The notes under the pieces are model-generated. The model did not search any database. It saw only the letters and a list, made by a program, of their open reading frames with translations, and was not told the DNA's origin. Source: Escherichia coli (GTDB lineage Bacteria > Pseudomonadota > Gammaproteobacteria > Enterobacterales > Enterobacteriaceae). Taken from it: DNA of 6,464 nt. The stretch lies in assembly GCF_003334255.1 (NCBI RefSeq), contig NZ_QOWU01000101.1; one strand, written 5' to 3'. How positions within the stretch are numbered: the stretch's first letter is position 1; each line of letters opens with the position of its first letter. Shown here in pieces: positions 5,345 through 6,464 of this stretch. Position numbers and translations under genes: made by a program.

Positions 5345-5643
5345 GGGTGAGGATTTATATCGCCGGTCCGATGACGGGATATGAAAATTTCAACCGCGAG
5401 GCGTTTCACAGGGCGGAAGATGCGCTGAAACGGGAAGGGCATACCGTTTTAAACCCGGCAGTACTTCCGGACGGGCTGACTCAACCACACTACATGGATA
5501 TTTGCATGGCAATGCTCCGTTGCGTGGATGCGGTTTACATGCTGAAAGGCTGGCAGCAGTCGGCAGGTGCAAGGGCTGAGCTGGCACTGGCGGAGAAACT
5601 GGGCCATGCGGTGATTTTTCAGGAGGTGGGCAGTGAATATTGA
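5341..5643 (+). CDS. DUF4406 protein, nucleoside 2-deoxyribosyltransferase-like fold, 100 aa
   Basis: N-terminal RIYIAGPMTGY and the later SAGARAELALA glutamate motif are typical of the NDT/Rcl-like fold. AGGAGGG at 5327-5333 precedes GTG 5341, which overlaps the upstream TGA. GTG 5347 is an alternative start. Confidence 0.75.
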   Translation: MRVRIYIAGPMTGYENFNREAFHRAEDALKREGHTVLNPAVLPDGLTQPHYMDICMAMLRCVDAVYMLKGWQQSAGARAELALAEKLGHAVIFQEVGSEY

Positions 5644-5872
5644 CCCGGCGATAACGATTGATATGGCCCTGAACACCGGCCTGGCACTTCTTGGTTATTT
5701 CTACATCATGTTCTGCAGCGGACGATGGCTGTCACTGTTGTTCATGAAAAAATGGAATAAACGCCGTAAGCAGGAGCAACGCCAGAAGGCAATGGATGCA
5801 TTTTCGAAGCCTTCGGAATTGACGGCATGGAACCAGGGGATCCAGCTCGCGCAATCAGCAGAGGGGGTGTAG
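5633..5872 (+). CDS. Small predicted membrane protein (one TM helix followed by a basic stretch), 69-79 aa
   Basis: Hydrophobic segment ALNTGLALLGYFYIMF followed by KKWNKRRKQEQRQK. GTG 5633 overlaps the DUF4406 stop by 11 bp; ATG 5663 is an alternative start. Confidence 0.45.
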   Translation: MNIDPAITIDMALNTGLALLGYFYIMFCSGRWLSLLFMKKWNKRRKQEQRQKAMDAFSKPSELTAWNQGIQLAQSAEGV

Positions 5873-5902
5873 TAATCCTTGTATATCGGAGTGAAGAGAA
5901 AA

Positions 5903-6217
5903 ATGACGATCACAAAACAACGAGTAGAAAAAATCATATATCGCCATGAAATGGGACTGAACAGCGATGTCACTGCCGAAGAGGTTTATGACCTGGCTGT
6001 ACTGGCGCTGAATTTATCAAATATCGCAAACCTGAAGCGATACGAGCTTGATATGGATGGTTGCGACTCGTGCGGTCAGGATTGTGGCGCAGATATGACT
6101 GAAGATCCTGATGGTGATTATGTCCTGTTTGATGACGTGGTTAAGTTGTTTGAATTTGATACAACCACTCAAAAGTTAGAAATCCCGGCAAAGGAGGCAG
6201 CCAGTGAGCAAGATTGA
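5903..6217 (+). CDS. Hypothetical acidic protein with a CDSCGQDC cysteine cluster, 104 aa
   Basis: ATG 5903 lies downstream of GGAG at 5888-5891; the track's 5879 start is a TTG. The C-terminal half is strongly acidic (DMDGCDSCGQDCGADMTEDPDGDYVLFDD). The stop overlaps the next gene's start region. Confidence 0.6.
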   Translation: MTITKQRVEKIIYRHEMGLNSDVTAEEVYDLAVLALNLSNIANLKRYELDMDGCDSCGQDCGADMTEDPDGDYVLFDDVVKLFEFDTTTQKLEIPAKEAASEQD

Positions 6218-6464
6218 CTATCAGGCACTGCGTGAAAAGGCAGAGAAAGCAACTAAAGGAAGCTACATCGTAGGGCATACATCTGTTAACCAGCACGGCA
6301 ATTTAACAGGAGTTTTTGTTTGCCAAAAATGGAAAGGAGAACCCGGTGGCGTGATTGCGGAATGTCATATTAACTGCCTGATTGAAACAGATGCTCAGGC
6401 TTATGCAAACGCTGAATTCATAGCAGAGGCTAACCCGGCTACCGTGCTGGCACTGCTGGATGAA
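6204..6464 (+). CDS. Ead/Ea22-like family protein, 5' partial (runs off the window end)
   Basis: SD AAGGAGG at 6191-6197 with GTG at 6204. The frame is open to the window end, and the translation ends ...ANAEFIAEANPATVLALLDE, the motif I associate with Ead/Ea22-like proteins. Confidence 0.7.
   Translation, partial: MSKIDYQALREKAEKATKGSYIVGHTSVNQHGNLTGVFVCQKWKGEPGGVIAECHINCLIETDAQAYANAEFIAEANPATVLALLDE

Follow-up and report, generated by a model that had tools for sequence, protein, structure and literature searches.

What does a short, acidic protein with a cluster of three cysteines do in the early accessory region of a lambdoid prophage, and is it related to anything characterised? This question is raised by a gene at positions 5903..6217 (+) of the window, i.e. 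the whole stretch of 6,464 nucleotides of Escherichia coli DNA that was analysed. Its product, WP_001300189.1, is annotated as 'hypothetical protein', has 104 residues (translation MTITKQRVEKIIYRHEMGLNSDVTAEEVYDLAVLALNLSNIANLKRYELDMDGCDSCGQDCGADMTEDPDGDYVLFDDVVKLFEFDTTTQKLEIPAKEAASEQD) and is a member of PHROG 3126, which it matches over the full length (E 3.7e-64, 214 bits, residues 1-104 against positions 1-105 of the 105 in the profile). It shows no difference from that family, which carries no annotated function.

The reading frame begins with the ATG at 5903 and ends with the TGA at 6215-6217. The purine-rich stretch GGAGTGAAGAGAAAA, just 5' of this ATG (5888..5902, +), is likely the ribosome-binding region by sequence reading. 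Upstream lies a DUF4752 homologue (5633..5949, +); in intact DUF4752 genes, a 15-residue tail beyond the Pfam domain overlaps the first 47 nt of the focal gene. The frame of this tail is open in almost all loci, including those of virulent phages with no annotated DUF4752 gene at that place. In the window the homologue is a pseudogene, frameshifted near 5805 by a 1-nt deletion relative to Escherichia phage PhiR49_2. An alternative start at the ATG of 5951, just past the DUF4752 stop, was rejected: no Shine-Dalgarno-like sequence precedes it, and the MTITKQ N-terminus encoded from 5903 is kept in virulent phages, where it follows a different annotated upstream gene ('Eae' in swi2) with a 4-nt ATGA overlap. 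Because the MTITKQ start is conserved behind that different gene, the start was placed at 5903 and not at 5951.

Downstream, as the first-pass annotation had proposed, the focal gene is directly followed by an Ead/Ea22-like gene (6204..6464, +), which matches Pfam Ead_Ea22 with an E-value of 1.3e-20 and runs past the end of the window. Its GTG start at 6204 stands six nucleotides after an AGGAGG Shine-Dalgarno sequence (6192-6197) and gives a 14-nt overlap with the focal stop. RefSeq treats this gene as a pseudogene, truncated so that the C-terminus is missing. Both neighbours of the focal gene have thus decayed, whereas its own frame is intact.

A lambdoid prophage adjoining yccA in E. coli JE86-ST05 and in three further complete genomes matches the window at 100% identity. 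The gene order of the window starts with the DicF sRNA, a repressor, a Cro/YdaS-like regulator and a CII/YdaT-like protein, continues with O-like and P-like replication proteins, DUF1627, a small basic protein and DUF4406, and ends with the frameshifted DUF4752 gene, the focal gene and the truncated Ead/Ea22-like gene. Phage PhiR49_2 carries a CDS for a protein 100% identical to the focal one, in the early-left operon between cI and int, flanked by DUF4752 and Ea22. The focal gene thus lies in an accessory early-gene neighbourhood, in agreement with the accessory-gene setting suggested earlier. At the left end, the DicF sRNA is complete (54-105, -; Rfam RF00039, 70.1 bits against a gathering score of 48), and in the source genome dicB lies just left of the window. 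Between 2030 and 2720 (+), the genes at the Cro and CII positions are named 'transcriptional regulator' and 'toxin YdaT family protein' in RefSeq, and the one at the CII position is a CII-like activator according to PHROGs, in conflict with the RefSeq YdaT annotation.

The focal gene was found in 533 of 5426 complete E. coli genomes (about 10%), where its flanks are nearly always DUF4752 and Ead/Ea22-like genes. By tblastn, 63 phage records carry a homologue; they comprise temperate lambdoid phages and siphophages such as Vi II-E1, Bas80 and swi2, which were taken as virulent from their taxonomy and gene content.

An exhaustive HMM/profile search of 1.84 billion cluster representatives yielded 113 relatives (representatives at 50% identity). 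These match residues 1-40 alone, residues ~40-88 alone, or both, many of them in a single part only: the focal protein is made of two portable modules, A and B, that are swapped between phage proteins. Module A (residues 1-43; 5903..6031, +) is predicted to be a helical hairpin of the type ERIEEII.RIEMYGHGAGYTADEV..LA.IALA., and other mosaic phage proteins carry it at their N-terminus without module B. Module B (residues 44-88; 6032..6166, +) is an acidic Cys-loop mini-domain with the pattern [KR]R[YF]-D-L-D-M-x-x-C-D-S-[CF]-G-Q-D-C-G-A-[DE]-M-x-E-[DE]-x-D-G-[DE]-Y-V-L-x-x-[DE]-V; it contains the cluster C54-D-S-C57-G-Q-D-C61 (6062..6085, +). The C-terminal tail (residues 89-104; 6167..6214, +) is variable, and its last codons overlap the start of the next gene. 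In 55 longer proteins module B is located near the N-terminus or at the extreme C-terminus, and the Pfam domains accompanying it in the 31 proteins scanned were DUF551 (6), Ead_Ea22 (3) and dATP/dGTP pyrophosphohydrolase (1). It is also present in Aeromonas phage AeroV_348 and on a contig with 61% GC. Module B is a portable acidic Cys-loop domain that is described in no domain database and is new here.

Two further matches were considered. The 2824-aa Ig-repeat protein P0164, with profile matches in 12 stretches, was set aside as a relative, being most likely a compositional (Asp-rich) false positive. The BFVD entry A0A1B1PEG8 of Pectobacterium phage PP90 (61 aa), annotated as 'putative single-stranded DNA binding protein', gave a Foldseek match to module B with 35% identity over 46 columns, a probability of 0.99 and an E-value of 0.16. 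This entry may represent a remote module B that stands by itself in a different group of phages; it was not retrieved when the two most divergent members were used as tblastn queries.

No relation to any characterised family was detected for the focal protein. The Pfam-A scan returned no significant match (best zf-FCS, E 0.16, and DUF6990, E 0.48), and zf-FCS was also sub-threshold against module B (E 0.022). The NCBIfam scan and PDB sequence searches, the latter with both the protein and the module alignment, gave no significant match, and no PADLOC-DB defence HMM matched the focal protein or any of three fusion relatives at E ≤ 0.1. All 244 relatives in a collection of 5.8 billion proteins are unnamed or 'hypothetical'. 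Literature searches with PHROG 3126, the RefSeq identifier, DUF4752 and the Vi II-E1 locus tag found nothing, and no experimental data on the family.

The structure was predicted with AlphaFold2. A shallow alignment gave an unusable model (pLDDT 56.5); after remote relatives that carry the modules had been added to the alignment, the model reached a mean pLDDT of 76.5, with helices at residues 5-16, 25-42 and 76-82 and strands at 47-50 and 64-67. Module B is accordingly predicted as strand 47-50, the Cys loop, strand 64-67, a PDG turn and helix 76-82. The blocks covering residues 1-80 have pLDDT values of 84-92, except the Cys-loop block 51-60 at 71; confidence drops over residues 81-88, and the tail 89-104, with pLDDT below 50, is predicted to be disordered. 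Superposition of the focal model with AFDB models of close relatives in the family was poor (TM 0.31-0.56), so that the relative arrangement of modules A and B is uncertain. Foldseek against AFDB50 returned uncharacterised family members only, with no annotated match, and against BFVD nothing at E ≤ 0.001. Neither a DNA-mimic fold nor any other characterised fold was recognised in the focal model.

The first-pass annotation had described a small, highly acidic protein whose C-terminal half is dominated by Asp and Glu around a C-x2-C-x3-C cluster. Calculation agrees with this on each count. The protein has a pI of 4.12 and a charge of −15.4 at pH 7, with 24 D+E against 9 K+R; residues 53-104 contain 15 D/E against 3 K/R, and the only cysteines are C54, C57 and C61 (CDSCGQDC). 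Module B bears a net charge of −11 over its 45 residues. The net charge per residue is −0.144 for the whole protein and −0.244 for module B, the latter equal to that of T7 Ocr (−0.239).

From such features the protein had been proposed to be a DNA mimic or anti-restriction factor. Under that proposal, the acidic surface of module B, possibly in an oligomeric form, would imitate the phosphate backbone and act as a decoy for a host DNA-binding defence or nucleoid protein, e.g. a type I restriction-modification system, BREX or H-NS. Besides the charge density shared with Ocr, the acidic residues are conserved, most loops having 7-8 D/E within ~21 residues and the most distant members 3-5; the gene is an early accessory one in temperate as well as virulent siphophages; and in both prophage/phage regions examined, no other annotated CDS has a product with a more negative charge per residue. 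The pI is likewise similar to that of the Ocr/ArdA type (4.12 compared with 4.05), and an early accessory location is common to both. Nevertheless, no homology or fold match to these proteins was found: the Pfam profiles, which include the Ocr and ArdA families, gave no match, hhalign gave probabilities of 0.5% against T7 Ocr and 0.85% against lambda Ral, and Foldseek gave no annotated match in AFDB50 or BFVD. Moreover, the acidic residues are clustered in a loop-rich module of 45 residues and not along an extended rigid surface; this module is frequently embedded in mosaic proteins of 140-365 aa, unlike the known mimics, which stand alone; and the gene is nearly absent from plasmids, with 7 occurrences among 72,556, none of them mobilizable. 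Charge by itself would still allow the DNA-mimic proposal; it gained no support from the other results, and we consider it unlikely. In its most specific form, module B would be a metal-stapled acidic decoy domain that sequesters a host DNA-binding defence or nucleoid protein, which is equally doubtful; such a decoy may be used free-standing or fused to Ead/Ea22, DUF551 or nucleotide-pyrophosphatase domains in enterobacterial and Aeromonas phages.

The cysteine cluster had also been suggested to bind metal. In an alignment of 20 divergent modules, R46, C54, C61 and G71 are invariant, and D55, A63, M65 and V79 nearly so. The middle cysteine is less constant: the loop motif occurs as CDSCGQDCG (104), CDSFGQDCG (59) and CDPFSPNCC (12), C57 being replaced by Phe in 59 of 179 motif instances (about one third). 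Among 185 loops, 123 have at least three Cys, with spacings that include C-x2-C-x3-C, C-x6-CC, C-x-C-x3-C and C-x3-C-x2-C; 13 have two Cys and one His, mostly members of a GGH-C subfamily with the His adjacent to C54; 48, of a form frequent in E. coli, have two Cys without His; and the last has only one Cys. At least two loop cysteines are hence kept in 184 of 185 members. The Cys pair is essential, and a third ligand is usual but dispensable.

Considering that 48 of 185 members carry two Cys without His, a monomeric three-Cys site is not required. Four conserved Cys/His ligands, as in a zinc finger or ribbon, were not found, only C54 and C61 being invariant. The segment C54-D-S-C57-G58 resembles a single CxxCG zinc knuckle placed between two beta-strands, but the protein has no second knuckle, its middle Cys is Phe in about one third of instances, and its matches to Pfam zinc-finger families are sub-threshold. 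Judged from the sequences, the pattern fits a metal site in which a carboxylate or another subunit supplies the rest of the coordination, and a canonical four-ligand zinc finger less well. Domains of such small size commonly need a metal for folding. A structural disulfide is unlikely, since the sequence shows no sign of a signal peptide or a membrane-spanning segment. The suggested metal binding is thus plausible, in a form weakened by the variability of the ligands.

The same two cysteines could instead form a thiol switch, in which C54 and C61 would be joined by a reversible disulfide under oxidative stress, altering the interactions of the protein and making prophage induction, or the early decisions of the phage, responsive to peroxide stress. 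That C54 and C61 are invariant and six residues apart in most members, with a dispensable third Cys, is compatible with such a pair. Module B is often fused to DUF551, and responses to H2O2 are reported to be affected by the exo-xis/Ea22 region (PMC10834534) and by the DUF551-containing protein YfdS (PMC4699033). Conservation of the family is, however, just as strong in virulent siphophages, where no decision on lysogeny is taken, and the variable Cys spacing and usual third Cys of distant members fit metal ligation better. A redox switch is accordingly very improbable.

The selective constraint was estimated by the Nei-Gojobori method, comparing the window with three virulent-siphophage homologues. 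The dN/dS ratio was 0.21-0.34 at dS values of 0.45-1.0, and 0.10-0.18 for module B alone (residues 46-84); among the virulent-phage homologues themselves, at low dS, module B gave 0.23-0.57. The codons of module B were also compared between four contexts, i.e. the window, an Ead fusion (L088), the contig with 61% GC (L087) and the Aeromonas phage (L086). Most synonymous sites have changed from one context to another, but the peptide C-D-S-[CF]-G-Q-D-C-G-A-[DE]-M is retained; the constraint is therefore on the protein and not on a DNA element. For the same reason, we rejected the idea that the extreme conservation of CDSCGQDCGADM reflects a recombination linker or an element acting at the DNA level, its synonymous sites being scrambled between contexts. 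The reading frame is intact in 80 of 80 IMG/VR viral loci, which came from a search with a narrower alignment and represent close relatives only. The focal ORF is a genuine, widespread and conserved gene under purifying selection. That it might be a spurious or decaying ORF, kept only through its overlaps (first 47 nt with the DUF4752 frame, last 14 nt with the Ead/Ea22 start) or as a recombination linker, as two pseudogene neighbours in the window and first 17 codons almost identical to those of Vi II-E1, a pattern of recent mosaic exchange, might suggest, is effectively refuted by the codon-level analysis, considering the central 250 nt free of any overlap, the low dN/dS at dS up to 1.0, the intact frames, the N-terminus conserved in virulent phages with a different annotated upstream gene, and the retention of module B amino acids across unrelated gene settings and hosts with 43-63% GC.

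The link to Ead/Ea22 proteins was then considered. An Ead-type ORF (MSKIDYQALRE...) begins 14 nt before the focal stop in 66 of the 80 viral loci, and in most of the remaining ones the same Ead sequence is read from an upstream start or as an in-frame fusion. In-frame fusions of the focal and Ead/Ea22 sequences, with differing junctions, are present in L045 (3884-4912), P0121 and P0134; these may be real gene fusions or sequencing frameshifts. In four other proteins (P0145, P0155, P0163 and P0167), an Ead-type N-domain detected by phmmer and a coiled coil are directly followed by module B, and P0153 has by eye the same coiled coil and module B behind an N-terminal part without phmmer match. 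Module B takes there the position of the Ea22 C-terminal domain. Ea22 proteins are described as mosaics, with a common N-terminal and coiled-coil part and unrelated C-terminal domains; the latter are reported to be acidic and portable, to vary in sequence, and to form dimers in the few instances examined as purified protein (PMC10834534). In its behaviour module B resembles a further interchangeable Ea22 C-terminal domain, made here as a separate protein.

The focal protein and the Ead/Ea22 family (PF13935; lambda Ea22) thus share a neighbourhood and an operon, the two genes being translationally coupled and sometimes fused, but the Ead_Ea22 domain is absent from the focal protein and present in the product of the next gene; hhalign of the focal protein against lambda Ea22 gave a probability of 0.8%. 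Ea22 has a pro-lysogenic role. Lambda Ea8.5 is, like the focal protein, a small early accessory protein of lambdoid phages, with a helical N-terminal part and a Cys-based C-terminal part; hhalign against it gave a probability of 0.15%. In the virulent siphophages, no Ead/Ea22 gene follows the homologue, so that the partnership with Ead/Ea22 is not obligatory. In Vi II-E1, Bas80 and swi2 (L083-L085), the homologue is followed by an ORF of ~35-40 aa with a predicted transmembrane segment (RRRYTTGAKIFLAVYVLALVAAIAGVVHYV).

Taken together, we tentatively favour, with a probability of about 0.4, the reading of module B as a non-catalytic, probably metal-stabilised, acidic protein-interaction or oligomerisation module of the Ead/Ea22-DUF551 mosaic network. 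Metal binding, oligomerisation, the partner and the biological role are features that we only infer. The gene product would be a cytoplasmic, early-expressed accessory protein assembled from two portable modules, with module A as an N-terminal helical hairpin and module B as a very acidic mini-domain of ~45 residues, formed by a Cys-loop beta-hairpin and a short helix. The fold of module B would be held by a bound metal ion, most likely zinc, whose putative ligands are the two invariant Cys together with either one more group (Cys, His or carboxylate) or the equivalent two Cys of a partner subunit. Module B would have no catalytic activity and would serve protein-protein interaction or oligomerisation. 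The free-standing A+B protein may act with Ead/Ea22-type early proteins, or in the manner of their C-terminal domain, and would in this way modulate early phage development or host takeover via a protein partner.

The early accessory regions of lambdoid and Stx prophages contain many small mosaic genes, and some of these act on lysogeny, induction and host defence. A gene with the strongly constrained, portable, acidic Cys-loop domain described here is found in roughly 10% of complete E. coli genomes, and module B offers experimenters a defined unit of 45 residues that is tied to the Ead/Ea22 network. If it were neither a decoy nor an adaptor, it would be an ordinary conserved hypothetical. 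If the decoy reading were true, it would represent a new structural class of DNA-mimic-like anti-defence module, and should a host protein turn out to be the target of module B as decoy or adaptor, this would account for a building block that recurs in many prophage proteins.
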